Assembly: GCA_003483065.1 (NCBI GenBank) | Contig: DMWY01000018.1 | Span: 8,160 to 72,159, forward strand | Direction of reading: 5' to 3' | DNA length: 64,000 nucleotides | Source of the DNA: Candidatus Moraniibacteriota bacterium | GTDB taxonomy: Bacteria > Patescibacteriota > Minisyncoccia > Moranbacterales > UBA2206 | Shown: positions 3,928 to 42,129 of the stretch, piece by piece | Layout of the letters: the number at the start of each line of letters is the position of its first letter | How positions within the stretch are numbered: position 1 is the first letter of the stretch | The notes under the pieces: model-generated | What the model was told of the DNA's origin: nothing | What the model saw: the letters and a program-made list of their open reading frames with translations, nothing else | Databases searched by the model: none | Program-made: the position numbers and the translations under genes

Positions 3928-4006
3928 TGTCATCCTGAACTTGTTTCAGGATCTCTAATATTAGCTACATCAGGTGCTGAAACCCGCCGGCCAGCGAGGT
4001 AAATTC
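3928..4006. repeat. MITE-like palindromic element, TGTCAT...ATGACA family 2, copy 1
   Basis: tgtcatcctgaacttgtttcaggatct...gctgaaacccgccggccagcgaggtaaattcagtatgaca. It has 12-bp imperfect terminal inverted repeats. A GC-rich mini-palindrome sits in the second hairpin loop. The copy at 29231 has the same outer sequence. Confidence 0.7.
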
Positions 4007-4059
4007 AGTATGACACGTTTTATCATAAGCTTCTATATCCCTATTCTACTATCTTTCCC

Positions 4060-4130
4060 TAAAAACAAAAAGGCGCCCGTCGCAATGAATCTGCAACGAG
4101 ACGCCTCTTCTGAATTTTTCAGAAAACGGG
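4060..4130 (-). terminator. Putative rho-independent terminator after receiver-like gene
   Basis: Minus strand reads aggcgtctcgttgcagattcattgcgacgggcgcct followed by ttttgttttt. Confidence 0.4.
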
Positions 4131-4135
4131 ATTTT

Positions 4136-4492
4136 TTAAAGTAGCCTCCTAACTACTTCGGTGATTTCCCTTCCTCCAGCCGGCTTTGCCAAAAAAGCAT
4201 TAACACAAAAAATCATTGCCAGATTTTGCGCATTAACACTTCCGGAGTAAACAAAAATATTTGTTTGGGGTGATTTTCTCTGACAAAATCTTATAATATC
4301 TACTCCGCCTTTTTTGATTCCAACAATAATCAGGTCAGGCTTATAACTGATTATTCTTTGTCTCTGCTCGTCTCGATCATCTGAGACGATAATCTCACCC
4401 GCAAAACCAGCCGAAAGAATTTGTCTTCTGATTAAATCATTTGTGGCACTGTCTAAATATGCCACTAAAATTATCCCCGACTTTTCTTCCAT
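4136..4492 (-). CDS. Degenerate receiver (CheY-like) domain protein lacking the phospho-acceptor Asp
   Basis: 118 aa with the receiver fold pattern (..ILVAYLDS..PDLIIVGIKK..FLAKP) but Gly where the phosphorylatable Asp is expected. AGGGAG RBS. Confidence 0.5.
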   Translation of the reverse strand: MEEKSGIILVAYLDSATNDLIRRQILSAGFAGEIIVSDDRDEQRQRIISYKPDLIIVGIKKGGVDIIRFCQRKSPQTNIFVYSGSVNAQNLAMIFCVNAFLAKPAGGREITEVVRRLL

Positions 4493-4504
4493 TCTTTTTT
4501 CTCC

Positions 4505-4873
4505 CTATAGGGTTAAAATTAGATTTTCCACTGCTTCCCTGATAACTTCCAATGGAAACGGTTTCAATAAAAACACATCGTATCCAATGGAAAAATCTTC
4601 TTCTTTTTCTGAACCAGACATATAAATAACACCCATCTCCGACATAATCTCTTTTGCTTTTTTTATCAACCTTGCCCCATTCATTTCGGGCATTTGGCTA
4701 TCCGAAATCAGAAGATCGATTTTTTTGTCTTCCAATTTCATATTTTTTATGAAGTCTAAAGCAAAAAGTGGAAATGAGAAATCAAAAACTTCATATCCCA
4801 ATTCTCCTAGATATAAGGAGAGCGTAGTTAAAATTAAATCACTATCATCAACCACGACTATTGTTTTGACCAT
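4505..4873 (-). CDS. Stand-alone response regulator receiver domain protein
   Basis: VVVDDSD...LLISDSQMPEMNG...LLKPF gives the canonical DD / D / K receiver residues. Strong AAGGAGGGG RBS before MVKT. The ORF track has a longer alternative-start extension. Confidence 0.7.
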   Translation of the reverse strand: MVKTIVVVDDSDLILTTLSLYLGELGYEVFDFSFPLFALDFIKNMKLEDKKIDLLISDSQMPEMNGARLIKKAKEIMSEMGVIYMSGSEKEEDFSIGYDVFLLKPFPLEVIREAVENLILTL

Positions 4874-5033
4874 ATCTCCCCTCCTTATATATTCAAGAAA
4901 GTATTTATTCAATTTTTAAGATTAACTAAAAGCCTACCGTTTTAGGCTTCCCCACATTCAAGCATATTTTGAATTTTTAGTCAAACAAAAACCCCGTTTT
5001 GGCGGAGTTTTTGTCTTATTTGAGCCTAAATTG

Positions 5034-8000
5034 CTATTTAATTTCTGCTCTTTGAGTAGCTTTTTTCCTAGTAAAATAGAAAATAGCATATAGCACCACA
5101 CCTCCAATTATCGCTGTCCAAGGAAGCCATTTGTAAAGTCGACATACTTCATAGAAGTACCAGACAAACAAAATCACAGCCAATTCTATCACTTGAGACA
5201 CCCAAGGCAAATTCTTTCCTTCTTTGAACTTGTTGAAAGTAGAAAAACTAAATATTCCTGCATATGCGAGTAGCATTAGAATCCAAACCCACAAAGGCCA
5301 TTCTTTGCAATTCTTTTCCGCCCCAGCCACTTCTGGATTAGATTGAACGCCCTCGACTTGTCCACCCTGATTATTCTCTTCATTCGGAGTCGGTTGTGTT
5401 TCTTGCCCACCTCCCGTTGTCGCTGGAAGTGTTCCTCCTGTTACGATAGCCACATTTTCGTCTTCATCGCTTCCATTATCTTCATTTCGAGAATAATCAT
5501 TATCGTATTTGCATATAACATTTGAACCGGAAGCTAAATTGATAGTGACTTTCTTTTTACTTTTCACAAAAGTTGCTAAGTTCGTTGAATCACTACAACG
5601 AATTTTGTCAAAAGACCAGTGGTCACTATTCAAGGATCCTTCTGTGACTGAATATGTGCCAGGGACCAAAAATTCACTTGTCCATGCATCATCCTGCCCC
5701 AACTTAAATGTGCCAGCGAAACTTGAGGAGAAAGGAAACTTTCTGCTGGTGTCATGATCAACTCTCTTAATGATTGTGATTTTTCCTAATTGCTGATTGC
5801 CGAAATTATATTCCGGTCCACTCACATAATTTTGCGATTCCTGGAATTCATAAGAATTTCCATCAGGAAGATTTATCGTGTAGCAATTCGATTCACTCGG
5901 GAAAGTTTGTCTCCAACCATCTTTTTGCGTCTCACAAACCTTGTATTCTCCTGGCAATAATTTTTCAAACCAATACCAACCAAAATGTTGATCGCTACCA
6001 TCCGTATTCATTGTTTTCATTGGCTCACTGTTATATCCCTCTCCATTTGACTGATAGAGATTAATAGTCCAGCCAGAAAGCAAGGACTCTGTTTCATCTT
6101 TTACCCCATCTCCATCCGCATCGCTCCATTTATATCCATGAATTGTGCTTAGTTTGGTATTGGTAATAGTACATTCTTTGGTTTCACCAGCTTCCACACT
6201 CACATCTGCGCAAGTATTCTCGGTCTGTTGCCAATTATTTGGAAGATTCTTTTCTAAAACAGAATATGTTCCCGGTGTCACTTCATAATCTGCTGATTTG
6301 GCAGTTAAAATCGATTGATTTGAATCAGAAATAACAGTGCCTTTTTCAGTACTAATAGAAGTATCAAAAGATGTTTCGTCATTAGCTGGATTGGTTATCT
6401 TATTAACAATCAAATGTCCGTTTCTATTATTAGTAATTGTACAAACAATATCTTCGTCCTTATTCACTGTGATTCCAGAAAGACTTGTCCCAGCTCCTGA
6501 AGCTATAATTTCATCACCATTTTTACATTCAATTGAAGATGAGTAATCTGAAAGATCAGTTGGTATCCAAACAAGATGATGGTTTATCCATTCAAAATGA
6601 CCCGCGGCGGTTTCTGAAACACTATGCGTTCCAGTTTTCACTGTTTTTTTCCAAGTTGAATCACCATCACTTGCAAGCAATCTTTCAATGTCTCCGTCAA
6701 TTTTCAAATTAAATCTGCCTTCGTCATCAGATGGATTGAGATTTTTCACAACCTTGATCGTTCCAGTGTTTCTGGTGTTTTGAATTGTGCAAGTGACGTC
6801 CTCATCCTCTCCAACATTGATTCCAGAAAGACTTGTTCCTTGTCCTGAAGAAACTTCCACTGTTTCATAATGACAATGACCATAGTGGCAATAGTCAATT
6901 TCTTGACGAGTGCATCTTATCGAAGATGTATAATCTGCCAAATCTGTTGCGCCATAACCTTCTTCCGAAACGCTATGTGCTCCAGTTATCACTGTTTGTG
7001 TTCCTGTTGTGCCATTGTCGCCTTTATTAGTTCCTTTGACAGTTTCATCAATCAGCAAATTAAATCGTCCCGAATCAAAACTCAAATTTGAATGTAAATC
7101 TTTGACAACTTTTATAGTTCCCGTTGCCAATTCAACTTTAATATTAAATGATTTATTTGAAGTATTCCCAGCAGAATCACTCGCACTGCAAGTTACTACA
7201 GTTGTTCCGATTGGAAAAATTGAACCGGATACTGGAATACAATTCACTTCAATATCTCCATCCACTGCATCATTTGCTGTTGGATTTACATATGTGACAA
7301 TCTTTCCACTAGGATCAGTGGTTTTGGTGTTTATATTTGCAGGCATTCCGGAAATAACTGGAGGAGTTGTGTCTTGAACTGTCACAGTGAATGAACCGCT
7401 GGCTATATTTCCCGCCGTGTCAGTCGCACTACAAGCAACAGTGGTTGTTCCAATTGGAAAAGTTGAACCGGAAACTGGGTTGCAAGTCACGACAGGATGA
7501 GCAGGATTAGCATCATCAGCAATAGCAACAAAAGAAACCATAGCTCCGCTTGAATTTGTCGCTTCAGTGGTAATATTGGCTGGTAAATTTAGAGTCGGAG
7601 AAGTTGTGTCAGAATAATCATAAGCAATTTTTATTTGCACATTATCAACATAAGCTGTTTGATGACCAACAGGAGATCTTCTAACAGATAAAACGACACC
7701 AAAATCAGCATCATTCACTTGCTCTGGTGTCCAAGTTGTTCCCCATAGATTAGTTTCTCCTCCGTAGATTGCAACAGCATCCGTTGCTGGCCAATATTCA
7801 CCACGAAAATAATTAGATCCCACCACTGCTCCAGTATTGTCTACAAGCCTAACTAAATGATCTTGAACTGCGTTTGAAGAAGAAGCTTTTCGCTCTATTG
7901 AAACTTGGATTCCCGTGATAGTTGCTCCGGCTGGTACAGAAAAACCAAAATCAGAAACCTTGAGATAGTTGGAAACATGCCCAGAGCTTGTAAGATTGGC

Positions 8001-8945: not shown

Positions 8946-9192
8946 AGATTTAATTTAGATAATTACCTTATTAAAAAAACAAAAAACAACCAAAACTGAC
9001 TGCCCCTAAAAAGGCAACAAGCTTTAGTTGTTCTTCCACAGCTAAAATTCTTCTGCTAGTTGTGCTCATTTCACCCGTATTTAAAACACTTTAACAGATT
9101 TAATCTACTACAGATATCAGATTTTGTCCAGCGTTTTGCCACTATTGACAAAAATAAAATATATGCCTTAATGTTTTTCCAAAAGTCAAAAA

Positions 9193-9216
9193 AACCACCC
9201 AAGCGGTGGAATTTTT
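9193..9216. terminator. Bidirectional hairpin terminator
   Basis: aaaaaaaccacccaagcggtggaattttttg: a GC stem flanked by an A-run and a T-run. Confidence 0.5.
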
Positions 9217-9443
9217 TGTTTTTGTTTTTATCTCTCGATATAACGAGATAAGGCAAGGAATCTAGCCTTTCTTTTTTTTAGGCTTGTTCGGCCTATTACT
9301 TGTTTATTAAATTCTTTCTATATTTACCCTATGGAATAATATTATATAAAACTCCAATCATATTTTAAAATTAAAGATAACCTATGGTCTTAAGAATATT
9401 CTAAGTCCGTATTCCATAGGGTGAAAATTCTATTTTTTCTTGT

Positions 9444-10256
9444 TTAAACTTGTTGGACATTTTTCTTCATTCCGTGAGCCATATATATTTTGTCGCAAGC
9501 TACTGCCAAAAAAGAAATTGGGAGAAGGGCAATTGATCCAAGGAAAAGTAATGCCGAAGCTACTGACAAAACATTCGATACATTCGGCCAAACTTTTTCG
9601 GGATTAATTTTGACAGTGTTTTTGTTTTCTGGGATTGTTTTAGTTAGCGTTTCTTCTTTTATCGCTAAAACTTGTGGCAGAATTCCTGCTCCCCTCTCGA
9701 GCAAATCAGAACTTTTTTGCATTATGAAATTTTCGCCATCTTTTGAAGCCATAAGCGCTCCCGCTCTAGTTCCAAATTCTTGCACTGTGATAAGTGACAT
9801 TTCACCATCTATCTCTCCTGCGCCAAACGCTACACCAATTTCTTTGTAATCAGGATTCAAAATATTTTTTCGGTGCGTCGGGCTTTTCATCCAAGCTGAT
9901 TGTTGCTCTTCGGCGCTGGTATAATTGATGGCTAAATTTTCACCGGCGAATTGATAGTCGTAGTTCTCGCGTGCAAACCAGTGCCATGGAGTTTTTCCAC
10001 TTGGTGAAGTATGCGCGAAATAACTATTCTTGATCATATCATTGAGTTTGTCATTAGCCACCCTGGAAAGTGCTTCGTTTTGACTAAGTGGTGCCAAGCC
10101 TTCTTTCTCTCGAGCGATGTTTACCAGTTGGATAACTTTTCCAGGATTTATTTCACTCGCCATTATCGGCACAGCAAAAATAAAGAACATAATTGCAATT
10201 GCAACCACCTCCACAAAACATTCTTCTATTAATTTGATTTTTAATCTCTTAATCAT
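9444..10256 (-). CDS. CAP/SCP/PR-1 domain protein, membrane-anchored
   Basis: YFAHTSPSGKTPWHW...GENLA...WMKSPTHRKNIL...YKEIGVA, with an N-terminal TM helix and C-terminal hydrophobic segments. Confidence 0.7.
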   Translation of the reverse strand: MIKRLKIKLIEECFVEVVAIAIMFFIFAVPIMASEINPGKVIQLVNIAREKEGLAPLSQNEALSRVANDKLNDMIKNSYFAHTSPSGKTPWHWFARENYDYQFAGENLAINYTSAEEQQSAWMKSPTHRKNILNPDYKEIGVAFGAGEIDGEMSLITVQEFGTRAGALMASKDGENFIMQKSSDLLERGAGILPQVLAIKEETLTKTIPENKNTVKINPEKVWPNVSNVLSVASALLFLGSIALLPISFLAVACDKIYMAHGMKKNVQQV

Positions 10257-10267
10257 CTTTTTGTTTT

Positions 10268-10330: not shown

Positions 10331-10349
10331 CGGTTAAAAATAATAAAAT

Positions 10350-10497: not shown

Positions 10498-10512
10498 GTA
10501 AGGATTGAAAAA

Positions 10513-10969: not shown

Positions 10970-13900
10970 TTAAATTTTCCTAACCCCAATTTCCAATTTT
11001 TCTCCATCTACCTCAAAAGTTTTTTTGAGATCTCCGGATATTTCATTGGAAGACAATATGCCATTCGCCAAAGTTTCTTTGGCGATTAATTTCTTGAGAT
11101 CTATATTGTTAAAGATCAATGATTCACCACTATAAACTATTTCAATTCGATTGTCAACTTCATAGCCCGCCTCTTTTCTCATTTCTTGAATGAAACGAAT
11201 CACCTCTCGTGCTTGGCCTTCGAGTTTGAGTTCGAGGGTGATTTCGGTATTTAATTTTATATTTTCAACACTAGAACTAGATTGCGCATCATCCATTTTA
11301 AATTCCCCAACAAACTTAACTTCCTTAATATTTAATTCTTCTTTTATTATATCTAAAAATTCCGCTCGTAATTCGCAATTGGTAATTAGTAATTCAGATA
11401 GAGGCTGACGAACTTTTATCCCCGCTTTTGCTCGCAGTTGCAATGCTTCTGTGATAATATTTCTCGTTTCTTCCATTTCCTTATTTAATCTTTCATCAAT
11501 CAATTTTTCATCAGCGATTGGAAAATCTTGCAAGTGTACAGACGCAAAATTTTGCGTCTCTACGGCGCTGGATAAATTCCGATAAATTTCCTCAGAGATA
11601 AACGGCGTAAACGGCGCCATCAATTTTGAAAGGGTTATTAAAACATAATGCAAGGTTTCATAGGCCTCATTTTTATCACCATCATTTTCCGATTTCCAAA
11701 ATCGCTTTCGACTTCGACGAATATACCAATTGGAAAGGTTATCCACAAAAACTTCAATTGATTTTGCAGAACTATAAACATCATACGCCTCTAATTTTTC
11801 ATCTACATTTTTGATAAGCATTTGCATTTCAGAAATAATCCACTTATCAAGAAGATTTTTTGTATCTTGTATCTTGTATCTTGTATCTTGCGGTTGAAAA
11901 CCGTCTATATTTGCATACATCACAAAAAATGAATATGAATTCCAAAGCATGCGAAAAACTCGATTCATAATATCTTTCATATTTTTGATATCAAATTTTT
12001 TCGGAAGTCCTGGTTGATTGATGGTATAGAGCATCCAGCGAAGCATATCTGCTCCATATTCATCCATAACCTTCATTGGTTCAATGACATTGCCTTTTGA
12101 CTTAGACATTTTTTTGCCTTTAGCATCCAAAATATGCCCGAGACAAATAACATTTTTGAAAGCATAGCCGGTTGGAACTTTTCCGGATTCGTTGAGTAAT
12201 GTAGCAATTGCGTGCAGAGTGTAGAACCACCCACGAGTTTGATCCACTGCTTCGGAAATATAATCAGCCGGAAAAAACTTTCCACTTTCAACTTTTTCTT
12301 TTTCTTCCATGCTAGCTGAAGCAGGATAATAGAATTGAGCTAACGGCATCGAGCCTGAATCAAACCAAACGTCCAAAACTTCTGGCACTTTTTTCATTTC
12401 TTCTCCGCAGACACATTCAAATTTAACTTCGTCTATATATGGTTTGTGTAAATCCTCAATTTTTTGACCAGATAAATCTTCCAGTTCTTTTTGCGATTCA
12501 ATAACTTTCAATTCTCCACATTTTTCACATTTCCAAATTGGCAAAGGAGTTCCCCAATAACGTTCTCGGGAGATTGCCCAGTCTTTGACACCCTTCAACC
12601 ATTCACCAAAACGACCCTCTCTGAAATGCTCCGGAATCCAATTTATCTTCTCATTATTTTTTACTAATTTTTCTGAAAATTCACTCATTCGGATAAACCA
12701 TGATGGCTTGGCATAATAAATCAAAGGGGTATCGCATCTCCAACAAAATGGATAATCATGTTCATACAATTCTTCTTTGAAAAGCAACTCGCGCTTTTTC
12801 AAGTCCTCTAGAATTAATTCATCGACTGCATATTTGTTTTTTTCATTTTTCTTTTTAACTGGAATTCCAAATCCAGGAACTTCCGCTGACATTTTTCCTT
12901 CCGTGTCCACGGTAATCAGAGTTGGTAAGTCATTTTCGCGTCCAACATTACTATCATCCTCTCCAAAGGCCGGGGCGATATGCACTATTCCCGTTCCATC
13001 TTGTGTCGTCACAAAATCACCCGAGACAACTCGGTAAGCTTTTTTGTCAGAATCATTAGTTTTATAAAGCGGTTCGTATTCAAGGCCGATTAAGTCATTA
13101 CCACTCATATCATCATGCACTATTTCCATTTCTTTGTCTTTGAATATTTTTTCAATCAAATCGCTAGCGACGATAATCAATTCTGAAATATCTTTTATCC
13201 GAAGCGACGTATATTTTACATTTTTGTTAACCGCTAATGCAACATTGCCTGGGAGTGTCCAAGGTGTAGTCGTCCAAACTAAAATGTAAGCGCTGTCCTT
13301 AGTTTTATATTTACCTCCTCCGAATTCTTGTTCTGGCTTTAATTTAAATTTAACAAAAACTGAATTGTCTTTCACGACCTGATAACCCTGCGCCACTTCA
13401 TGAGAAGAAAGTGCTGTTCCACAACGATAACAATATGGCACAACTTTGTGACCTTGATAAATCAAGCTTTCTCCATTCTTATTTTTAGTTTTGAAAATTT
13501 GCGCAATCACCCACCAAACTGATTCGATATATTTATTTTCATATGTGACATAAGGTTTTTTCATATCCACCCAATATGCCATTCTTTGCGTGAGTTTTTC
13601 CCAAAGATCTCGATAGAGCCAAACTGATTCTTTGCATTTCTTGTTAAATTCAATGACACTTTCTCTCGGATTTCCCGGTATAATATTTTCAATTTCTTGT
13701 TTGTTTTTTAGTCCCAATGCTTTTTCCACTTGCAATTCAACTGGCAAACCATGTGTATCCCAACCAGCTTTTCTTTCCACTCGATAGCCTTTCATTGTTT
13801 TGTAGCGCGGAATGATATCTTTGAACGCTCGCGCTAAAACATGATGAAGCCCAGGAACACCATTGGCCGTCGGTGGCCCTTCATAAAACACAAAAGATTT

Positions 13901-16078: not shown

Positions 16079-17710
16079 TCACATCTTTTCTGGAGAATTT
16101 ACTCCTAACAATCTGAGAACTTCTCCTAACACTATTCTAACAGCATTTATGAGGTTTAGTCTAGCGCTAGTTAGCTCTGGATTTTCATCATCTAGCACCT
16201 TGCAATCATTGTAAAAAGAATGAAATTTATCCGCCAATTTTATCGCATAATACGGCAATTTATGCACTTCATAACTTTCGGAAACATCCTCAATGATTTG
16301 CGGAAATTTGTCGAGTTCTCGAATTAAACTCAATTCTTTTTTATGAGTTAGTAATGACAAATCTACCTTATTCCTCCTCTCCTCTTGGGAGAGGATGTCC
16401 CGACAAAGTCGGGACAGGAGAGGGCTCTCTTTCACCTTCTCTAAGATACTACAAATTCTAGCGTGCGCATATTGCACATAGAAGACTGGATTTTTTTCAG
16501 ATCTTTCTTTTGCCAAACCAAGATCGAAAGTCATATGAGTGTTAGCATCATACATCAAAAAGAAAAATCGCACGGCGTCCAAACCAACTTCATCTATCAG
16601 CTCATCAATATATACAACATTCCCAGCACGCTTGCTCATTTTTGCTTCTTTGCCATCTTTCACAAGACGCACCAATTGCACAATCACAAACTTGAGTTCT
16701 CCCTTGAACCCAAGGGCTTCGGCTGCTGCGCGAAATCTCAAAATATAGCCATGATGATCAGCGCCCCAAACTTCAATTATTTTTTCAAATTTTCTGTCTA
16801 TTTTATTCAAGATATATCCACAATCCGAGGCAAAATATGTTTTTTGTCCGTCTTTTTTAACAAGCACTCGATCTTTGTCATCGCCAAATTTTGTCGTCTT
16901 AAGCCACATCGCTCCATCATTTTCAAAAGTTAATTCTTTCTTTTTCAATTTTTCAATCGCCTTATCAATATAGCCATCTTCATAAAGAGATTTTTCTGAC
17001 ATCCAGCTATCAAAATTAATTTTCATCTTTTCTTTGATTGTTTTTTTGATAATCTCATCCAGCACAATCTTGGCCGACTTTTCTCCAATTTCTTTGATAT
17101 CTTTTATTTTTGCAAATTTTTTATTCAATTGATCAATATATTCCCCGGAATATGCCGCCTCCTCATCCTTCAAAACACTGTGACCTAATTTGAGCAATTG
17201 CTCTCCAGCATCATTCACATAATATTCATTAACATTTTCATAACCCGCCTTTTCCAAAACTTTTCCAATCACATCTCCGAAAAATCCTCCTCGACCATTG
17301 CCCAGATGAAGCGGTCCAGTCGGGTTGGCAGAAATAAATTCATTGTTAACTTTTTTTCCTTTTCCAGTTTTGCCTTCGCCAAACTTATTTTCTCTTTCAT
17401 TTATCTCTCGAACTTTGTCCTGCAAATATTCTTTAGACAAATAGAAATTTATATACCCCGGTACAACAACTTCCACTTTCTCAAAAAATTGCTGTACGGA
17501 CAGGTCGCGACCTGTCCCTACCAAAAAATTTTTAATCTCCTCAGCTACTGTTATCGGATTTTTCTTGGCACTCTTACTCAAAACCATCGCCACATTAGTC
17601 GTATAATCACCAAAAGCTTCAAGCTTCGGATAGTCAACATCAACCTCACCTATTTCATAACCGAGGTCTTTCACCGCTTTTTCTATAAGTTTTTGAATTT
17701 CTTGTTTCAT
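16079..17710 (-). CDS. argS: Arginine--tRNA ligase
   Basis: N-terminal Arg-tRNA-binding domain, HIGH motif (PTGPLHLGNGRG), and C-terminal DALR anticodon-binding region. Carries the in-frame palindromic insertion at 16373..16424. Confidence 0.9.
   Translation of the reverse strand: MKQEIQKLIEKAVKDLGYEIGEVDVDYPKLEAFGDYTTNVAMVLSKSAKKNPITVAEEIKNFLVGTGRDLSVQQFFEKVEVVVPGYINFYLSKEYLQDKVREINERENKFGEGKTGKGKKVNNEFISANPTGPLHLGNGRGGFFGDVIGKVLEKAGYENVNEYYVNDAGEQLLKLGHSVLKDEEAAYSGEYIDQLNKKFAKIKDIKEIGEKSAKIVLDEIIKKTIKEKMKINFDSWMSEKSLYEDGYIDKAIEKLKKKELTFENDGAMWLKTTKFGDDKDRVLVKKDGQKTYFASDCGYILNKIDRKFEKIIEVWGADHHGYILRFRAAAEALGFKGELKFVIVQLVRLVKDGKEAKMSKRAGNVVYIDELIDEVGLDAVRFFFLMYDANTHMTFDLGLAKERSEKNPVFYVQYAHARICSILEKVKESPLLSRLCRDILSQEERRNKVDLSLLTHKKELSLIRELDKFPQIIEDVSESYEVHKLPYYAIKLADKFHSFYNDCKVLDDENPELTSARLNLINAVRIVLGEVLRLLGVNSPEKM
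16373..16424 (+). repeat. In-frame palindromic insertion element (PIE) copy A, inside argS
   Basis: cctcctctcctcttgggagagg atgtcccgacaaagtcgggacag gagaggg. Arms cctctcc/ggagagg plus an internal hairpin gtcccgac/gtcgggac. Encodes PLLSRLCRDILSQEERR within ArgRS with no stop. Confidence 0.75.
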
Positions 17711-20829: not shown

Positions 20830-21513
20830 CTATACCATACACTTCCTCACTGGTCGGAAACTTTTGCGGTGGATTTCGCAGGGGCCGTGTTTTTTGAGAG
20901 CGTCCATATGTATTTTTGTTCCATAGCCTTTATGCTGAGCAAAATTATATTCAGGATAAATTTTGTGCATTTCTTCCATCATGCGGTCACGCGTCACCTT
21001 GGCATAAATCGAAGCGGCGGAAATTGATTTGATCAGTTTATCCCCACTCACAATTGCTCTTTGCTCAAAAGAAAAGTTGGGAATTTTTTTGTTGCCGTCT
21101 AAAAGAATTATTAATTTAGAATTATCAAAATCTTGAATTTTAGTTTTCAATTGTGAAACCGCACTTTTCATCGCGAGAAAAGAAGCTTCCAAGATATTCA
21201 CCCGATCAATCGTCCGATGATCACAAATTCCCACTCCCACATGAAAATTCTCCCCTATAAAATCAAACAGGCTTTCTCTCTGTTTTTCCGAGAGCATTTT
21301 GGAATCGCGGATAAGATTGAATTTTTCCAAATCCTTCTCGCCCTTAGGGAGAGGATGTCGTGTACTCACGACAGGAGAGGGAACACGCAAAGCTACCGCA
21401 CACGCCACAACAGGCCCAGCCAGTGGTCCTCTTCCCACCTCATCAATCCCGATGATAATTTCATATCCTTCGGCGCTTAATTTTTCCTCTAACTCAAATG
21501 TTGACTTTATCAT
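20830..21513 (-). CDS. rnhB: Ribonuclease HII
   Basis: IGIDEVGRGPLAGPVVACAV...DSK RNase HII motifs. Carries the in-frame palindromic insertion at 21333..21381. Confidence 0.9.
   Translation of the reverse strand: MIKSTFELEEKLSAEGYEIIIGIDEVGRGPLAGPVVACAVALRVPSPVVSTRHPLPKGEKDLEKFNLIRDSKMLSEKQRESLFDFIGENFHVGVGICDHRTIDRVNILEASFLAMKSAVSQLKTKIQDFDNSKLIILLDGNKKIPNFSFEQRAIVSGDKLIKSISAASIYAKVTRDRMMEEMHKIYPEYNFAQHKGYGTKIHMDALKKHGPCEIHRKSFRPVRKCMV
21333..21381 (+). repeat. In-frame palindromic insertion element (PIE) copy B, inside rnhB
   Basis: ccttctcgcccttagggagagg atgtcgtgtactcacgacag gagaggg. Inner hairpin gtcgtg/cacgac is compensatory relative to copies C and D. Encodes RVPSPVVSTRHPLPKGE. Confidence 0.75.
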
Positions 21514-25500: not shown

Positions 25501-26118
25501 GAGTCAGTTGGGCAAATGGTGTCGGTGGGTGGGATAATTTCCAAGATAAAAAAGATTTTTCTCAAAAATCAAAAAACAATGATGTTTGTCACGCTGGAAG
25601 ATATGAATTCCACCATGGAAATTCTGGTTTTTCCAAAAGTTTTGGAAGCAACCGGATCGATCTGGCAAGAGGAAAAAATAATTTTGGCGAGTGGAAAAAT
25701 TTCTGACAAAGATGGTAGTTTCAAATTACTCTGCGACACAGTCAAGGTCGTCAACGAAAATGAATTGGAAAATTTCAAAAGAATTCTACACACCCAAAGA
25801 AACAACGGCGGTGAGCCTACAAAAAAATCCCTTCCCAATCCTCCTCTCCCCTCGGGAGAGGATGTCGCGTACTCGCGACAGGAGAGGGAGAATCTTAGTA
25901 AGTCTTCCAAACTCATCATCACCCTCCCACCAAATTTCGACAAAGCCATCCTCAAAAATCTTTCTTCCCTGTTTGATCGTTGCGAACTAGGCGCTATGAA
26001 AGTATACTTATCTATCAACAACTCAAAACTTGAAACACCCTATTGCATCCAAAATACCGCGGAACTCGAAAAAGCCTTGAAGATAATTGTGCCAGAAGGG
26101 AAAGTGGAGATTTGGTAG
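22567..26118 (+). CDS. dnaE: DNA polymerase III alpha subunit
   Basis: PHP domain N-terminus ([13 protein letters not shown]), polymerase core ([27 protein letters not shown]), OB fold. Carries the in-frame palindromic insertion at 25840..25888. Confidence 0.95.
   Translation: [1183 protein letters not shown]
25840..25888 (+). repeat. In-frame palindromic insertion element (PIE) copy C, inside dnaE
   Basis: cctcctctcccctcgggagagg atgtcgcgtactcgcgacag gagaggg. Encodes [17 protein letters not shown] near the DnaE C-terminus. Confidence 0.8.
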
Positions 26119-26722: not shown

Positions 26723-27277
26723 TTAGCCTATTTTCCTCACTTCTCCTCTTATCTTTTTATACTCCGGTACCATTTTTACCACGAGATTCCAAAAATCCCT
26801 GGAATGATTGAATTCGCCAAGGTGGCAGAGTTCATGGACGATTATGTAGTCGCAAAGTTTTTCGGAAAGATAGATTATCCGATAGCTGAAATTTAGGTTT
26901 CCCGATCTGGAACAACTCCCCCAGCGAGTCTTTTGATTGCGAATAGAAACTCGACCATATGAAAAACCATAGAACTCATTGAAATATTTCAATTTCTTTT
27001 CAGCGATTTCTCGCGCCAGCTTTTTATATTTCAAATAATCTTTTCTCGTTGCCGGTGGCAAAGCCGATTCCTTATTTTGGAAATGTTTTATCTTCCCAAG
27101 AATCCAATCCGCCTTTTCTCTCACAAACCTCATCGCAATTTCCTCACTGAGTCGCCACGGCACACTTACCACCAAAGTCGCATCATTTCTGATTGTGAGT
27201 CGCATGCACTTTGAACGTCGACTTTTTTTGAAAGTATATGAGATTCTTTCTTGATTTAATATTATTTCTTTTTGCAT
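26723..27277 (-). CDS. YgjP-like metal-dependent hydrolase (DUF45 / WLM-like HExxH)
   Basis: C-terminal IIVHELCHLGEFNHSRDFW zinc-metallohydrolase motif. Confidence 0.7.
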   Translation of the reverse strand: MQKEIILNQERISYTFKKSRRSKCMRLTIRNDATLVVSVPWRLSEEIAMRFVREKADWILGKIKHFQNKESALPPATRKDYLKYKKLAREIAEKKLKYFNEFYGFSYGRVSIRNQKTRWGSCSRSGNLNFSYRIIYLSEKLCDYIIVHELCHLGEFNHSRDFWNLVVKMVPEYKKIRGEVRKIG

Positions 27278-27376
27278 AAGGCTACAAAATTACAAAATTT
27301 TACAAAAATACAAATATACAAAAAATTACACTCAGATAAATTAATTATAGCAGGTATCTTGTATTTTGTATTTAAA

Positions 27377-27590
27377 CCCACCCTATAAAATAAAGAAAAA
27401 TAAATTGAGATTTTAGCGCGTTAAGAATTTACTCATCAGCGATTGACGGGGGCTTAGTAAATTTAGCGAAAAAATCGAAAATTTATTTCTTTATTTTATT
27501 TGGGTGGCCGCTTTCTTTTGTTACTTTTCTTTGAGGCAAAGAAAAGTAAGTGGAGAACTTTTTTTGGCTCGAGAGAAAAAGTACGAAGAA
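27377..27590 (+). repeat. Structured intergenic repeat family R200, copy 2
   Basis: cccaccctataaaataaagaaaaataaatt...aatttatttctttattttatttgggtgg form roughly 28-bp arms around the conserved core gcgttaagaatttactcat / ttagtaaatttagcgaaaaaatcgaaaattt. A second hairpin follows (ttacttttctttgaggcaaagaaaagtaa). Confidence 0.75.
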
Positions 27591-29230: not shown

Positions 29231-29315
29231 TGTCATCCTGAACTTGCCGTGCCTCGCCGGCAGGCGGGTTTCAGGATCTATTTTTTTAAGATGCTGAAAT
29301 AAATTCAGCATGACA
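29231..29315. repeat. MITE-like palindromic element, TGTCAT...ATGACA family 2, copy 2
   Basis: tgtcatcctgaacttg ccgtgcctcgccggcaggcggg tttcaggatct...gctgaaataaattcagcatgaca. Same outer sequence as copy 1. The GC-rich mini-palindrome sits in the first hairpin loop, not the second. Confidence 0.7.
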
Positions 29316-30156: not shown

Positions 30157-30235
30157 TGTCATCCTCGCGAATGCGGGGATCCAGTCTTAAATCATTAAGT
30201 TTCTACACTAGATTCCCGCCTAGGCGGGAATGACA
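30157..30235. repeat. MITE-like palindromic element, TGTCAT...ATGACA family 3, copy 1
   Basis: tgtcatcc tcgcgaatgcgggg atccagtc...ctacactagattcc cgcctaggcggg aatgaca. Partner copy at 42034..42129. Confidence 0.7.
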
Positions 30236-37217: not shown

Positions 37218-37231
37218 ATATTCATTATTTT

Positions 37232-37450
37232 CCCCCACCCCATAAAATAAAGAATTTAAATTGAGATTTTCGAGCGTTAAGAAATTCCTCATCTTCGCTC
37301 GATGTACTCATCGAGCCTAGGAATTTTAGCGAGAAAATCGAAAATTTATTTCTTTATTTTATTTGGGTGGCCTTTTTCTTTTTTGCCACTTTTCTTTTGG
37401 GAAAAGAAAAGTGGCGAGGAGTTTTTTGAGGCAAAGAAAAAGTAAGAATA
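37232..37450 (+). repeat. Structured intergenic repeat family R200, copy 3 (between thrS and miaB)
   Basis: ccccaccccataaaataaagaatttaaatt...aatttatttctttattttatttgggtgg with the conserved core and a second hairpin gccacttttcttttgggaaaagaaaagtggc. Ends 6 nt before the miaB ATG. Confidence 0.75.
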
Positions 37451-37456
37451 GAATTT

Positions 37457-38902
37457 ATGAAATACCACATCAAAACATTTGGTTGCCAGATGAACATTTC
37501 AGATAGCGAAAGAATTGCTAGCTTTTTGGAGTCGCAAAAAATTAAACCAACCGAAGAAATAACAAAAGCTGATTTGGTTATTTTTAATACTTGTGGAATA
37601 AGACAGATGGCTGAGGATCGTGTTTATGGACAAATACATAATATCAGAAAACAAGAATCAATGATCAATGATCAACAAAAAAAGAAAACTATTATTCTCA
37701 CCGGATGTTTAGCTAATCGAAAAGATGTGCAGAGAAGATTGAAAAATAAGGTTGATTTGTTTTGTGAGATTAAAGATTTTCAAAAGGAATTTAGAAATTG
37801 GATAATTGGAAATTATTTGGAAATTGGAAATTGGAAATTGGAAATTCCGGCACAACAAAAAAACACGCCATGCTCAGATTATTTATCCATCAACCCCAAA
37901 TACAATAATTCGCATAGCGCCTTCGTGCCGGTTATGACCGGTTGCAACAATTTCTGTTCCTATTGCGTTGTGCCATACGCCAGAGGACGCGAAGTTTCAA
38001 GGCCTTCAAAGGAAATAATTATGGAAATAAAAAACCTGCTCAAAAATGGTTGCAAAGAAATAATTCTTCTTGGACAGAATGTGAATTCTTATCAGCATAT
38101 GCCCTCTCCCCAACCCTCTCCCGATTACGGGAGAGGGGGTAATTCCAATCCTTCTCCCCCTTTGGGGGAGATGTCGCGTACTCGCGACAGAGAGGGTGAC
38201 GTTGTAAATTTCCCCAAACTCTTGCAACTCATCGAAAAAATTCCCGGCCATTTTTGGATTTCTTTTATGTCTAGCCACCCGAAAGATTTTTCTTCGGAAT
38301 TAATTGAAACAATTGCGAAATCGAAAAAAATATGTGAGCATATCCATCTCCCCTTGCAAGCTGGAGACGACAAGATTCTTTTAGCAATGAATCGAAAATA
38401 CACCGCCAAAAAATATTTAAACCTAGTAGCAAAAATAAAGTCCGCTTTCGCTAAATATAAACCCAATAAATTATATTCCATCACCACCGATATAATTGTC
38501 GGTTTTCCCGGAGAAACAAAAAAACAATTTCTTGAGTCGGCGTGCGTCATGAAAAAAGTCGGCTATGATCTTGTCTATTTTGGCCAATTCTCTCCCCGCC
38601 CAGGAACTGTTGCTTTTAAAATGAAAGATAATGTTTCCAAAATCGAAAAAAAGAAACGGGAATTTTTTCTCAATGAAATCCTAAAAGAAACTGCTCTTGG
38701 AAATAATCAAAAATATCTTGGAAAAATTTTGGAGGTTCTCATTGATAAAAAGGAAGGTGCTAATTATTTCGGCCGAACTCACTCATTAAAAAATGTGAAG
38801 ATTATTTCCACACAGAAAAATTTGGTCGGAAAATTTGTAAAGGTAAAAATAACCAAAGCTAATATTTGGAATTTGGAAGCTTCTCTTTACATAAAGCCAT
38901 AA
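37457..38902 (+). CDS. miaB: tRNA (N6-isopentenyl-adenosine) methylthiotransferase MiaB-like radical SAM enzyme
   Basis: MTTase N domain (KTFGCQMNISDSE), radical SAM CxxxCxxC (GCNNFCSYCVVPYARG), C-terminal TRAM domain. Carries a tandem double in-frame palindromic insertion at 38102..38196. Confidence 0.85.
   Translation: MKYHIKTFGCQMNISDSERIASFLESQKIKPTEEITKADLVIFNTCGIRQMAEDRVYGQIHNIRKQESMINDQQKKKTIILTGCLANRKDVQRRLKNKVDLFCEIKDFQKEFRNWIIGNYLEIGNWKLEIPAQQKNTPCSDYLSINPKYNNSHSAFVPVMTGCNNFCSYCVVPYARGREVSRPSKEIIMEIKNLLKNGCKEIILLGQNVNSYQHMPSPQPSPDYGRGGNSNPSPPLGEMSRTRDREGDVVNFPKLLQLIEKIPGHFWISFMSSHPKDFSSELIETIAKSKKICEHIHLPLQAGDDKILLAMNRKYTAKKYLNLVAKIKSAFAKYKPNKLYSITTDIIVGFPGETKKQFLESACVMKKVGYDLVYFGQFSPRPGTVAFKMKDNVSKIEKKKREFFLNEILKETALGNNQKYLGKILEVLIDKKEGANYFGRTHSLKNVKIISTQKNLVGKFVKVKITKANIWNLEASLYIKP
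38102..38196 (+). repeat. In-frame palindromic insertion elements (PIE) copy D, two tandem units inside miaB
   Basis: ccctctccccaaccctctccc gattac gggagaggggg...ccttctccccctttgggggag atgtcgcgtactcgcgacag agaggg. Encodes MPSPQPSPDYGRGGNSNPSPPLGEMSRTRDREGD between the radical SAM and TRAM domains. Confidence 0.8.
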
Positions 38903-38920
38903 TTACCTTATATTATTTCT

Positions 38921-40228
38921 ATGAATATCATTGTTTCAAAATTTGGCGGTACCTCAGTGGGAAGCCCCGAAGCTATTCAAAAACTTCGCGAAATTGTCTT
39001 GGAAAAAGAAGAACGAAAAATAATCGTTGTTTCTGCCGTTTCCGGCACTACCGATCTGTTGATCAAAGCCGGCACCGAAGCCAAACAGAAAGGAGATTGG
39101 GAAATTACACTGGAAATTATCAAAAAGAAGCATTTGAAATTAATCAAAGAACTCGGGATCAAATTAGATCTGTCTGAATATTTTGAAGAATTAGAAGCTT
39201 TTCTTAACGGCATAGAATCCATTGGAGAACTCACGCCAAGAAGCCGGGATTACATTTTGTCTTTTGGTGAAAGACTAAGTTCGAAAATAATTGAAAGTTT
39301 TTTGGAAAAAAAATCCAAAGCTATCCGCATTAATTCTCGAAAACTTATAAAAACCGACAATTCTTTCAGCTCAGCCAAACTAGACATGAAAGAAACGATC
39401 AAAGCTATAAAGAAAAATTTACTACCAAAATTAAATGACTTTGACAAAATCGTCATCACCGGCTTTATCGGCTCCACTGCGCACGGAGAATACACAACTT
39501 TTTCCCGCGGAGGCTCTGATTATACGGCGGCTATTTTAGCCAATGTGCTAAATGCCACCGAACTAGAAATTTGGACCGACGTGGACGGAATTCTCACTGC
39601 TAATCCCAAAATAATTCCTCAAGCGAAAGTAATTCCAAAAATAAATTATCGCGAAGCAGCTGAACTCGCCTATTTTGGCGCCAAAGTTCTTCACCCAAAA
39701 ACCATTGAACCCGTCGTGGTCAAAGAAATTCCCGCTCGTGTAGTCAACACTTTCAATCACAAACATCGCGGAACTCTCATTACCGGCGAATCGCAAAAAA
39801 ACATCAAATCCGTTTCCAGCAAAAATGGATCCTATATAATCAATCTCTATTCGACTGAGATGCTTGGAACTTCTGGATTTATGGCAGAAATATTTTCCAT
39901 CTTTTTGAAACATGATGTCGTCATCGACGTTGTGAGCACTTCCGAGTCTAGCATTTCCGTCACGACCGAATGCGAACCAACCACGCTCCTTATAAAGGAT
40001 TTGGAAAAATATGCACTCACTGAAATCCTATATAACAAAACTATAATTTCTCTTGTTGGTGAGGGCATCAGCCAAAGAAAAAATATTCTTTCTAGACTTT
40101 TCGGCGCAGTGAAAAACCATTCTATTAAAATGGTTTCCCAAGGTGCCTCCCCTCGAAACATCACGCTCGTCGTTGACAAAAAAGATGAAAAGCTAGTTAT
40201 CCGCGCTATTTATAAAGAATTTTTTTAA
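38921..40228 (+). CDS. lysC: Aspartate kinase
   Basis: N-terminal IVSKFGGTSVGS kinase motif, C-terminal ACT domains. Confidence 0.85.
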   Translation: MNIIVSKFGGTSVGSPEAIQKLREIVLEKEERKIIVVSAVSGTTDLLIKAGTEAKQKGDWEITLEIIKKKHLKLIKELGIKLDLSEYFEELEAFLNGIESIGELTPRSRDYILSFGERLSSKIIESFLEKKSKAIRINSRKLIKTDNSFSSAKLDMKETIKAIKKNLLPKLNDFDKIVITGFIGSTAHGEYTTFSRGGSDYTAAILANVLNATELEIWTDVDGILTANPKIIPQAKVIPKINYREAAELAYFGAKVLHPKTIEPVVVKEIPARVVNTFNHKHRGTLITGESQKNIKSVSSKNGSYIINLYSTEMLGTSGFMAEIFSIFLKHDVVIDVVSTSESSISVTTECEPTTLLIKDLEKYALTEILYNKTIISLVGEGISQRKNILSRLFGAVKNHSIKMVSQGASPRNITLVVDKKDEKLVIRAIYKEFF

Positions 40229-40242
40229 TACTAGAATTTAAG

Positions 40243-40385
40243 GATTTAAGCATTTGATTGTGGAAAAGATATTAACGCAGTCGCCAGGAAAATACTTTGT
40301 ATAGATAATTCTTAATTACTGGCGAGTTATTAAATTTTATAATTACTTTCGCGACGAGCATATCTTGACACAAGCGAATGCTTAA
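40243..40385 (+). promoter_or_regulatory. Structured lysC-asd intergenic element (13-20 bp long-range helix enclosing nested hairpin)
   Basis: ggatttaagcatttgattgtg...cacaagcgaatgcttaaatcc, with inner stem gtcgccag...ctggcgag. Confidence 0.4.
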
Positions 40386-40400
40386 ATCCTACATAAAATT

Positions 40401-41405
40401 ATGCGTTTTGCAATTATCGGTGCTACGGGCATCGTCGGGAGAGAAATGATTCAATGCCTCGAAAAAAAACATTTGAAAGTTTCTGCTTTGAGATTGGCGG
40501 CTTCACCACGCTCGGTGGGGAAAATGATCAAAACCAATTTCGGAAAAATAAAAGTGGAGAAAATCAGTGAAGAACTTTTCAAAAATTCTGACATCGCCCT
40601 TTTTGCCGCCGGCTCGGAAATTAGTTTGGAGTGGGCCAAAAAAGCGGCTGAGCTTGGCTCGGTTGTTATCGATAATTCCTCATGCTTTCGCTATGACCCA
40701 CAGGTGCCACTCATTATCCCAGAAATAAATCCAAAAGAAATTTCGAAACATAGAGGCATCATCGCCAATCCCAACTGCACCACTGCTATTGCCGCTATTC
40801 CACTTTGGGAAATTGAAAAAAAATTCGGTCTGAAAAAAGTTATTATTTCCACCTATCAGGCAGTTTCCGGCGCGGGGAAAGAAGCGATGGAAGAGTTGGA
40901 AAATCAAACTCATAGTTATTGCCAAAATAAAAAGTTCACAATAGACAAATTTCAACATCAAATTCTTTTCAATCTTATTCCTCATATTGATAAGTTTCAA
41001 GAAAATGGATATACCAAAGAAGAAATGAAGGTCGTTTGGGAAACTAGAAAAATATTTTCTCGTCCTAACATTGACATTTCTTGCACGGCTGTTCGTGTGC
41101 CGGTTATGCGAGCGCACAGCGAATCAATTGTAGTTGAAACAAAAAAGAAAATCACTCCCGAAAAAATTAGAGCGATTTTCAAAAAGACTTCTGGGATAAA
41201 AGTAGTTGATGATCCAAAAAATAATTCCTACCCAATGCCACTTTTTGCCAGTTCGGATTTTTCTGTTCATGTCGGGAGAATTAGACAAAGCCTTATTTTT
41301 GGAGATTTTGGACTGGAATTTTTTGTTAGTGGCGATCAAATCTTGAAAGGCGCCGCCCTCAATGCTGTCCAAATCGCCGAGCTTTTGATGAAGAAAAAGA
41401 AATAA
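40401..41405 (+). CDS. asd: Aspartate-semialdehyde dehydrogenase
   Basis: N-terminal Rossmann motif FAIIGATGIVGREM, with the catalytic Cys context NPNCTTAIAAIPL and SGAGK. Confidence 0.9.
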   Translation: MRFAIIGATGIVGREMIQCLEKKHLKVSALRLAASPRSVGKMIKTNFGKIKVEKISEELFKNSDIALFAAGSEISLEWAKKAAELGSVVIDNSSCFRYDPQVPLIIPEINPKEISKHRGIIANPNCTTAIAAIPLWEIEKKFGLKKVIISTYQAVSGAGKEAMEELENQTHSYCQNKKFTIDKFQHQILFNLIPHIDKFQENGYTKEEMKVVWETRKIFSRPNIDISCTAVRVPVMRAHSESIVVETKKKITPEKIRAIFKKTSGIKVVDDPKNNSYPMPLFASSDFSVHVGRIRQSLIFGDFGLEFFVSGDQILKGAALNAVQIAELLMKKKK

Positions 41406-41526
41406 ATTTATTTAGTTTATTTTAGGACTTACACGTTTACCTGAAAATCTATTTATGTAGCCAGTACAATGACAGGATTATAATCAATAATTTCTATCTA
41501 TAATCTTAGTTCATTTTTTTGTAATT

Positions 41527-42006
41527 TCAGCGAACAATAGATTTGAAGGGAAATGCGTAAGTCATATCCAAAACCGCCTCAGTCGCTTCTTTGCCCTTAT
41601 TGCATCTTTCATTCGCCCTGTCTTTTGCTTGCTTCAAGTTATTCACAGTTATCACGCCAAAACCAATTGGCAAAGAAAATTTCAGCATCACGTCCATTAT
41701 CCCCCTGGAAACTTCTTGTGATATATAATAGTAATGATCAGTGTCGCCCTTTATCACGCACCCGATAGCCACCAAGCCATCATATTTTTTTTCTTTCGCT
41801 AATTTCTGACAAGCTAAGGGAATTTCATATGCACCCGGAACCCAAACAATTTCAATATTGTTTTTTTTAACCTTATTTATTCGCAAAACTTCCAGCGCGC
41901 CCTGAAGCATTTTTTCCGTGATGTCCACATTGAATTTTGAGACTATAATCGCAATTTTGAGATTGCGACCATCAATTTTATTAATTTTTTTGTTTTCTCT
42001 TTGCAT
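41527..42006 (-). CDS. ribH: 6,7-dimethyl-8-ribityllumazine synthase
   Basis: 159 aa. LKIAIIVSKFN...GAYEIPLA...VIKGDTDHY matches the lumazine synthase fold signature. Confidence 0.85.
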   Translation of the reverse strand: MQRENKKINKIDGRNLKIAIIVSKFNVDITEKMLQGALEVLRINKVKKNNIEIVWVPGAYEIPLACQKLAKEKKYDGLVAIGCVIKGDTDHYYYISQEVSRGIMDVMLKFSLPIGFGVITVNNLKQAKDRANERCNKGKEATEAVLDMTYAFPFKSIVR

Positions 42007-42033
42007 AAGTATTTATAGTTATTTAAACCCCTC

Positions 42034-42129
42034 TGTCATTCCCGTGAAAACGGGAATCCAGTCATCAAATAAATTTTATTGCAATAAATTTAGTATCTAC
42101 ACTAGATTCCTGCTTTCGCAGGAATGACA
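42034..42129. repeat. MITE-like palindromic element, TGTCAT...ATGACA family 3, copy 2 (between ribH and ribE)
   Basis: tgtcattcc cgtgaaaacggg aatccagtc...ctacactagattcc tgctttcgcagg aatgaca. Confidence 0.7.

Follow-up and report, generated by a model that had tools for sequence, protein, structure and literature searches.

Palindromic elements in a Moranbacteria contig

The sequence analysed here, a 64,000-nt stretch of DNA that we refer to as the window, comes from a groundwater Moranbacteria genome (Candidatus Moraniibacteriota bacterium, assembly GCA_003483065.1, contig DMWY01000018.1, positions 8,160 to 72,159) and has a G+C content of 36.6%. Its host is a member of the candidate phyla radiation (CPR). 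Four palindromic elements that begin with TGTCAT and end with ATGACA, here called A to D, lie among genes for RecO, an AI-2E transporter, a SIMPL/DUF541 protein, an HlyD-type RND adaptor, RibE and RibH. The initial annotation, which was made from the sequence alone, had guessed flanking genes with which our results agree (recO, ribE and ribH among them), and it had described four TGTCAT...ATGACA palindromes of 79-96 bp, two subfamilies and long hairpin folding, each of which was borne out. Its coordinates for the elements at 29231-29315, 30157-30235 and 42034-42129 are exact; those of the first copy required correction, as the terminal ATGACA lies at 4010-4015 and the element ends at 4015 rather than 4006.

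Each element consists of two inverted modules (25-28 nt without insert) that are separated by a short AT-rich spacer and have their TGTC heads outermost, an arrangement we call head-out. The TGTC is an unpaired 5' head in all eight modules, and the stem that follows opens with an A-T and then a T-A pair. Six modules have a perfect 8-bp stem starting with AT; in the other two the same stem is interrupted by an insert. Alignments separate the elements into family 2 (C and D) and family 3 (A and B). The family-3 stem has the form ATTCCCGY...RCGGGAAT and encloses a 4-nt loop, and the family-2 stems are of the CCTGAA...TTCAGG kind, with a 5-nt loop (ATCCTGAA-CTTGT-TTCAGGAT and ATGCTGAA-TTTAT-TTCAGCAT). 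Loops are 4 nt long in four modules and 5 nt in two, and the remaining two carry inserts of 17-22 nt. The module tail is ATC(C/T)AG or ATCT; its 3' end reads CCA in A-left and B-left, CTA in A-right and B-right, and CTC, CTA, CTT or CCT in family 2. The features are listed below in window coordinates, where NTS denotes a Neisseria repeat, SRM stands for the NTS and its relatives, and the strict detector is described after the list.

3919..3921, minus strand: probable recO start codon (M5 of the longest open reading frame), 6 nt outside element C
3928..4015, 88 nt: element C, family 2, head-out dimer just upstream of recO
3928..3955, plus strand: C-left module, TGTC-ATCCTGAA-cttgt-TTCAGGAT-ctc, with 8-bp stem and 5-nt loop; found by the strict detector
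3971..4015, minus strand: C-right module, ACTGAA/TTCAGC type (GCTGAA-type arm), with GC-rich loop insert
3983..3999: C-right insert, 17 nt, GC-rich, CCCGCCGGCCAGCGAGG on the plus strand
29231..29315, 85 nt: element D, family 2, head-out dimer in the convergent AI-2E / SIMPL spacer, directly past the AI-2E terminator
29231..29280, plus strand: D-left module, CCTGAA type, with loop insert
29247..29268: D-left insert, 22 nt, GC-rich, CCGTGCCTCGCCGGCAGGCGGG, which lengthens the D-left stem
29288..29315, minus strand: D-right module, TGTC-ATGCTGAA-tttat-TTCAGCAT; found by the strict detector
30157..30235, 79 nt: element A, family 3, head-out NTS-like dimer in the divergent SIMPL / HlyD spacer
30157..30184, plus strand: A-left module, TGTCATCCTCGCGAATGCGGGGATCCAG; fits the published SRM pattern, 5 mismatches to NTS
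30208..30235, minus strand: A-right module, TGTCATTCCCGCCTAGGCGGGAATCTAG; 3 mismatches to NTS
42034..42129, 96 nt: element B, family 3, head-out dimer between ribE and ribH
42034..42061, plus strand: B-left module, TGTCATTCCCGTGAAAACGGGAATCCAG; fits the SRM pattern, 3 mismatches to NTS
42102..42129, minus strand: B-right module, TGTCATTCCTGCGAAAGCAGGAATCTAG; 3 mismatches to NTS

Several measures indicate that these elements are not chance palindromes. The pattern TGTCAT-N(50-80)-ATGACA has three matches in the window, where 0.14 are expected from shuffled sequence; element B, at 96 nt, exceeds the gap that the pattern allows and is therefore unmatched. A strict module detector (TGTC or CGTC head, perfect stem of 8-9 bp, loop of 3-6 nt) returned seven hits against about 0.2 in shuffles, and six of the seven are modules of elements A to D. 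A relaxed head-plus-hairpin detector was dropped as non-specific (about 40 hits in shuffles), and half-site patterns taken alone match at chance level. All eight strands of the four elements fold better than dinucleotide shuffles (z from -2.4 to -8.6), with predicted hairpins of -25 to -40 kcal/mol. Half-site and strict-module scans of the window and about 20 kb of adjoining contig, and whole-element scans of the window, found no further copies. The set thus comprises eight modules, arranged as four dimers, in about 84 kb, all of them extragenic or at gene junctions.

Filled and empty sites

To compare the four sites with those of related Moranbacteria, syntenic loci were recovered through homologues of SIMPL, RibH and RecO. 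Element D is missing from two relatives at 87% and 70% protein identity (loci L273 and L274), in which a clean 85-nt gap separates the aligned terminator that precedes the element from the aligned 3' end of the SIMPL gene that follows it; element A is missing from the same two relatives. Element B is missing at 84% and 69% identity (L279 and L281), where ribE and ribH overlap with no spacer between them. The window has a 131-nt ribE-ribH spacer that holds the element, a ribE shorter than that of the relatives and a longer RibH. Element C is missing from the recO upstream region of relatives with 86% (L282) and 84% (L283) RecO identity, in which recO begins ATGGAATATAAATAT straight after the conserved upstream sequence. 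The empty sites in relatives that the initial annotation had proposed to look for were thus found for every element, and the elements are not hairpins in fixed positions. That all four sites are empty in syntenic relatives indicates that the elements are lineage-specific gains rather than conserved regulatory hairpins. Target-site duplications were not found in any of the four filled-versus-empty comparisons.

Other insertions were seen at or near the same genes. The convergent ribH/asd spacer of the 84% relative carries a CCTGAA/TCCGAA SRM dimer (L279 2477-2544 and L280 1627-1694); the matching spacer of the window (41406-41526) holds no intact module, though it may retain a degenerate trace, cctgtcattgtactgg...ttttcagg. 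An unrelated 134-nt palindrome with 13-bp ends (CCCTGTTAAATAA...TTATTTAACAGGG) occupies the ribE/ribH junction of a 91% relative (L278 1866-2000), and a different, unrelated insert lies upstream of recO in a 76% relative (L284, about 1300-1500). The junctions that hold B and C in the window seem to have been hit repeatedly across relatives.

Relationship to known repeat families

Judged by sequence and predicted fold, the four elements are inverted pairs belonging to the superfamily of CGTC/TGTC-tagged repetitive extragenic palindromes (REPs) that includes dRS3, NTS, SRM and RPE-4/-6. CGTC-tagged REPs were defined by an unpaired CGTC head, with the variants TGTC and CCTC, and an 8-9 bp stem with complementary A-T and T-A at its first and second positions (Di Nocera, De Gregorio & Rocco 2013, PMC3733652). 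In that paper the loop is 4 nt in family 1, 5 nt in families 2-4 and variable in some families; a short unpaired 3' tail has the consensus CCA; copies are numerous in each genome, mostly extragenic, and prevalently dimeric; and CGTC-1 and CGTC-4 are equated with the Neisseria dRS3 and the Rickettsia RPE-6/RPE-4 (PMC3733652). The families closest to the window elements are CGTC-1 and CGTC-2. The window elements share the TGTC head, the 8-bp stem starting with AT, the loop of 4 nt (family 3) or 5 nt (family 2), the dimeric arrangement and the extragenic location. As in the published families, heterodimers are common, and two window modules have the CCA tail. They differ in the 17-22 nt GC-rich loop inserts of two of the eight modules, in their tails, most of which are CTA, CTC or CTT, and in their host, since the CGTC-REPs described in that paper come from five phyla, none of them CPR.

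The closest relative of family 3 is the NTS (consensus CGTCATTCCCGCGMAVGCGGGAATCYRG) of Neisseria. NTS and the related SRM flank ssnA genes, which belong to the Ssn class of single-domain (cd10448) GIY-YIG site-specific nucleases (Chenal et al. 2025, PMC11893778). According to that study, Ssn acts on single-stranded DNA only, binds the hairpin on the head-forward strand only and cuts a few bases 5' of the head; in N. meningitidis it restricts transformation by NTS-bearing DNA; and the NTS-ssnA-NTS layout is likened to an insertion sequence (IS), with mobility left as a hypothesis (PMC11893778). The four family-3 modules differ from the 28-nt NTS consensus at 3, 3, 3 and 5 positions, and every change in the stem is either compensatory (pairs 7/22, 10/19 and 12/17) or a G-T wobble. 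B-left and B-right each differ in the head base and one compensatory pair (12/17 and 10/19, respectively), A-right in the head base and two loop bases, and A-left in the head base, one compensatory stem pair, one G-T wobble and one loop base. The published SRM pattern, HGTCWYN(0-2)YYVSBRHN(0-5)WNVSBRGN(0-2)RNCYNB (PMC11893778), matches two of the eight window modules (A-left and B-left; 0.08 expected); A-right misses it through its loop changes and B-right through one compensatory pair. Family 2 has only the head GTCAT and the tail ATC in common with NTS. The head-out orientation of the window pairs is that of SRM around ssn genes, and the SIMPL gene, flanked on both sides by D and A, recalls the NTS-gene-NTS layout of Neisseria.

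Likenesses to other families are more partial. Like the Rickettsia RPEs, element B landed in coding sequence, at the ribE/ribH overlap, and both genes remain intact; RPEs, however, are typically 100-150 bp long and in frame within genes, whereas three of the four window copies are intergenic. The Wolbachia small RNA 46 family of Rfam (RF02625 WsnRNA46) has a consensus that is itself a head-out SRM dimer (UGUCAUCC...GGAUCCAG ... CUGGAUUCC...GGAUGACA). Element B aligns with it end to end at 33.6 bits (E 1.4e-5), below the gathering score of 65.3; the agreement is confined to heads and tails and does not extend to the stem cores. At gathering thresholds Rfam reports two tRNAs in the window and nothing else; permissive searches gave sub-threshold, hairpin-like matches only (microRNA precursors, FtrB and WsnRNA46). 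REP/REPIN-RAYT systems resemble the elements in combining a short oriented hairpin, inverted doublets and a repeat-flanked small nuclease gene acting on single-stranded DNA. They differ in having a GTAG head and an HUH tyrosine transposase in place of a GIY-YIG enzyme, and REPs are usually species-specific, whereas modules of the window type are near-identical across phyla.

Distribution of the modules

The family-3 pattern TGTCATTCC-N10-GGAATCYAGT was found in 65 stretches of viral contigs with G+C contents of 40-69%, both singly and in pairs. The family-2 pattern TGTCATCCTGAA-N(4-30)-TTCAGGATCT was found in at least 120 stretches of contigs representing one genome per species. Among the matches listed are CPR, Alpha-, Gamma-, Delta- and Epsilonproteobacteria, Bacteroidota, Firmicutes, Melainabacteria, Elusimicrobia, Spirochaetes, Chloroflexi, Dependentiae and others, including cultured isolates of Vibrio, Shewanella, Kangiella and Tamlana. 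The 27-mer TGTCATCCTGAACTTGTTTCAGGATCT, which is the exact C-left sequence, is the commonest form among these stretches. Module sequences are nearly unchanged across many phyla. Pairs in the 120 genome loci listed are most commonly head-out (52, against 20 head-in and 14 tandem), with a median spacer of 22 nt in the head-out pairs.

Two further arrangements were seen. Long tandem arrays of near-identical CCTGAA and TCCGGG heterodimers with linkers of about 10 nt, resembling BIMEs, occur in the alphaproteobacterial metagenome-assembled genome (MAG) ZE-Jul18-95 (L088 and L192). In many viral contigs (L008-L072; for example L014, L012 and L056) a single NTS-like module directly precedes a Shine-Dalgarno sequence and a start codon on the opposite strand (...GGAATGACAGAGGGAAATATG).

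An Ssn-type nuclease gene between head-out modules

Open reading frames (ORFs) within 600 nt of modules were clustered for about 185 loci that had been fetched by DNA pattern. With a nine-protein cluster from phage contigs excluded, only one family recurred, that of single-domain GIY-YIG proteins 82-97 aa long (PF01541). All nine of its genes in these loci lie directly between head-out modules, either NTS-like or of the CCTGAA type. In the viral contigs L015, L032 and L034 ssn genes adjoin NTS-like modules, and in the latter two they are flanked on both sides. An independent set of 80 metagenome loci, fetched by protein alone, gave the same association: hits of the published SRM pattern number 3.5-4.6 per kb up to 100 nt from the gene and about 0-0.4 per kb farther than 300 nt away, and the modules around the gene are mostly head-out. 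We label these genes Ssn-type on the basis of PF01541, size and flanking repeats. NCBIfam has no specific model for the proteins, which gave only a weak match to group I intron endonuclease, and in the PDB only two UPF0213 structural-genomics entries correspond to them.

The association extends to modules of the kind found in family 2. CCTGAA-type modules adjoin Ssn-type genes in six DNA-fetched loci (L130, L134, L138, L149, L177 and L178), and CTGAA-type modules do so in five protein-fetched loci (L220, L243, L247, L249 and L251), making 11 cases in unrelated loci. We place family 2 in the SRM class because of its anatomy and these 11 cases.

Inserts within hairpin loops

The GC-rich strings quoted in the initial annotation are all present in the window, although the nested mini-palindromes it had assigned to every copy are true inserts, of 17 and 22 nt, only in family 2; those of family 3 are the modules' own stems. 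When the inserts are removed, the left arm (CCTGAA) and the right arm (GCTGAA) of C agree with those of D, without any change of orientation. The family-2 alignment would also allow copy C to be copy D inverted, an arrangement rejected on these arm identities. The insert occupies the GCTGAA-type arm in C and the CCTGAA-type arm in D, as expected from the earlier statement that it sits in different hairpins; the opposite orientation also claimed there disappears when each insert is compared with its own module head, for in both C and D it lies just 5' of TTTCAG and is oriented alike.

The C insert also matches, in loop position and module-relative orientation, inserts in two other loci (L097 and L179). 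All fetched DNA together contains 213 CTGAA-type modules, of which 181 have the 5-nt loop and about 20 carry inserts. Several of the inserts are GC-rich stem extensions that start with CCTGCC or CCTCGC, end with GGCGGG and are positioned as in C and D, and such extensions are also seen in modules of other types and in MAGs of Gammaproteobacteria (L097, L179 and others). That related inserts occupy this loop position in modules of other types and in unrelated genomes supports the proposal that the family-2 mini-palindrome is a separately acquired unit. Complete smaller modules were found nested within CCTGAA-type loops in six loci (L075, L105, L137, L152, L167 and L183), and in all six the nested module has the orientation of its host. 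This consistent nesting suggests strand-specific insertion into hairpin loops, and suggests that exposed loops are insertion targets, a point that does not appear in the cited passages of PMC3733652 or PMC11893778.

Origin of the elements

We consider it probable that the elements are head-out pairs of SRM/CGTC-REP modules that lack an ssn gene of their own, and we infer that they spread with the help of Ssn acting in trans, by way of single-stranded DNA. Each element resembles an ssn cassette minus its gene, having the same head-out geometry as the modules around Ssn genes of about 90 aa. Such pairs would spread as non-autonomous units dependent on Ssn supplied in trans, and their movement would follow a single-stranded DNA route. 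The head-out arrangement is predicted to offer one cleavable site on each strand. Once settled, a pair could mark its locus for cutting by Ssn whenever that DNA is single-stranded, whether incoming or replicating, and a transcribed pair, such as that inside the ribE-ribH operon, would be expected to form a strong RNA hairpin.

Several points weigh against this interpretation. We know of no experiment in which mobility of SRM has been demonstrated. One Ssn cut per strand per dimer does not by itself account for excision or insertion, which is a weakness of the model. In contrast to the NTS and SRM described so far, all four family-2 modules, with their CCTGAA stems, fall outside the degenerate published SRM pattern. 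The main weakness is that no ssn gene was detected when the window and about 20 kb of adjoining contig (about 84 kb) were searched by tblastn with eight Ssn-type proteins. The copies are mutually diverged (mean column identity 68-78%, with both strands of each pair aligned together) and thus give no sign of a recent burst. Finally, at sites A, B and C the gained DNA exceeds the dimer by about 6-30 bases, at one end or at both; together with the lack of target duplication, these extra bases do not point to a defined unit or mechanism of insertion.

The divergence of the copies would also be expected if the dimers were scars, left when inserted SRM-ssn-SRM cassettes lost their gene by deletion, and not themselves mobile. 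Dimer and cassette share their head-out geometry, and heterodimers in which CCTGAA is paired with GCTGAA, GCCGAA or CCCGAA have their counterpart in cassettes with unlike ends. We nevertheless regard this origin as unlikely. Head-out pairs outnumber cassettes by 52 to 6 among the 120 genome loci listed, and their spacers are tightly short, with no recognisable ssn remnant. Nor does gene loss explain solo modules within the loops of other modules or the near-identical dimer arrays in L088 and L192. The initial annotation had described the elements as MITE-like (miniature inverted-repeat transposable elements). As a description of shape this stands, for they are repeated and palindromic. Descent from an IS with TGTCAT ends and a DDE transposase, by deletion, would fit their terminal inverted repeats, small size and AT-rich interior, and a DDE IS does lie just past the end of the window. 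We give this origin very little weight: none of the four filled-versus-empty comparisons has the target-site duplication, the supposed terminal repeats are self-folding hairpins identical to SRMs, and the neighbouring IS has unrelated ends (TCCTGACTTCGTCG) that lack TGTCAT. A classical transposase with TGTCAT ends, for which a search had been suggested, was not found at these loci; elsewhere the gene between such ends is GIY-YIG of the Ssn type, the only family found there repeatedly, the larger clusters coming from the phage-contig set.

It is just as improbable that the elements are conserved cis-regulatory RNA hairpins of the flanking genes (terminators, attenuators or processing sites). 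Their predicted hairpins are strong, B lies inside the ribE-ribH operon and C directly upstream of recO, but the same positions are empty in relatives at 69-87% protein identity, the same sequences stand beside unrelated genes in many phyla, and no Rfam family reaches threshold. There is neither a T-run nor a terminator call at the elements, which upholds the earlier view that they are not simple terminators. Least probable of all, in our estimate, is that they are REPINs, that is, doublets of GTAG-type REPs moved by RAYT, an IS200-like tyrosine transposase. The design is the same, with inverted short palindromes forming a long extragenic hairpin, but the head is TGTC instead of GTAG and none of about 190 loci has a RAYT in its vicinity. 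Di Nocera et al. likewise state that CGTC repeats seem to have no dedicated transposase, and they report no RAYT with CGTC repeats at its sides (PMC3733652).

A stronger version of Ssn-dependent spread is that modules and head-out pairs are non-autonomous elements that continue to move through single-stranded DNA and to pass by horizontal transfer, with a preference for exposed hairpin loops and gene junctions, and that the CCTGAA type represents an undescribed Ssn specificity class that reaches ultra-small CPR bacteria dependent on DNA uptake. We regard this extension as possible but doubtful. If true, it would explain why the gains are lineage-specific at four of four sites in a CPR genome, why many phyla and viral contigs share identical 27-mers, why all six nested modules have the orientation of their hosts, and why the GC-rich mini-hairpin recurs at one loop position across module types.

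The recO start codon

The longest recO ORF starts at an ATG (3933-3931) formed by the complement of the TGTCAT terminus of element C, and the initial annotation had described the element as overlapping the annotated recO start codon. The true start is probably the ATG at 3921-3919, since three observations agree: the Pfam RecO_N match begins at residue 5 of the longest ORF; RecO is 244 aa long in a public record (Candidatus Moranbacteria bacterium GW2011_GWF2_36_839), and 120 of the 120 RecO homologues listed align from residue 5 (covering residues 5-248); and the relatives that lack the element begin at the equivalent ATG, reading ATGGAATATAAATATAATGCG. We therefore place the start outside the element. 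Read in reverse, the ATGAC head generally provides an apparent start codon that can mislead gene callers, as at recO.

Other repeats and neighbouring features

A third palindromic family has four copies in the window (16372-16402, 21325-21382, 25832-25889 and 38157-38190), every one of them inside a long ORF. It is a double hairpin of up to about 58 nt, consisting of CCTCTCC-CCTC-GGGAGAGG, then TGTCGCG-TACT-CGCGACA, then GGAGAGGGA. The copy in DnaE encodes PPLPSGEDVAYSRQERE in a linker that is not present in an 87% relative. This has the look of an in-frame insertion within a gene, of the kind known from the Rickettsia RPEs.

An intergenic unit of about 170 nt is present in three copies (2985-3175, 27383-27575 and 37239-37440) with 79% column identity. 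A promoter-like TTGAGA...TAAGAAT is present, as is a terminator-like hairpin with a T-run; the unit matches no Rfam family at gathering score and may be a repeated small-RNA gene or leader. Heptamer runs resembling microsatellites, (TACAAGA)n or (TCTTGTA)n, and related TACAAAA-rich tracts occur in several intergenic regions and on both strands (11855-11890, 43651-43698, 54106-54139, 27276-27341 and 53584-53672). Genes for tRNA-Ile(GAT) and tRNA-Ala(TGC), the usual pair of the rRNA spacer, are adjacent at 57050-57223, with protein-coding ORFs and not rRNA genes on both sides. Just past the right end of the window (L287 4351-7449) lies a pair resembling a diversity-generating retroelement, bAvd with a reverse transcriptase (RT). 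Of the two assemblies of this region, L287 and L288, one has the DDE IS with the ends given above beside a shortened RT gene (300 aa); the other has no called IS or bAvd gene, and its RT gene encodes 327 aa.

Significance

Both the repeat family and the nuclease have been described before, and the elements are no new kind of system. What the window adds is, in part, natural evidence of mobility: four clean pairs of filled and empty sites are of the kind that both published studies called missing. One of these insertions, that of element B, split two overlapping genes, ribE and ribH, and left both intact. The AT-rich CCTGAA class lies outside the published pattern yet flanks Ssn-type genes, so that censuses of SRM may undercount the family. 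The family also reaches into the candidate phyla radiation, with modules within three bases of the N. meningitidis NTS. The occurrence of such near-NTS modules in CPR bacteria suggests either that the nuclease constrains the sequence strongly or that horizontal transfer is continuing.

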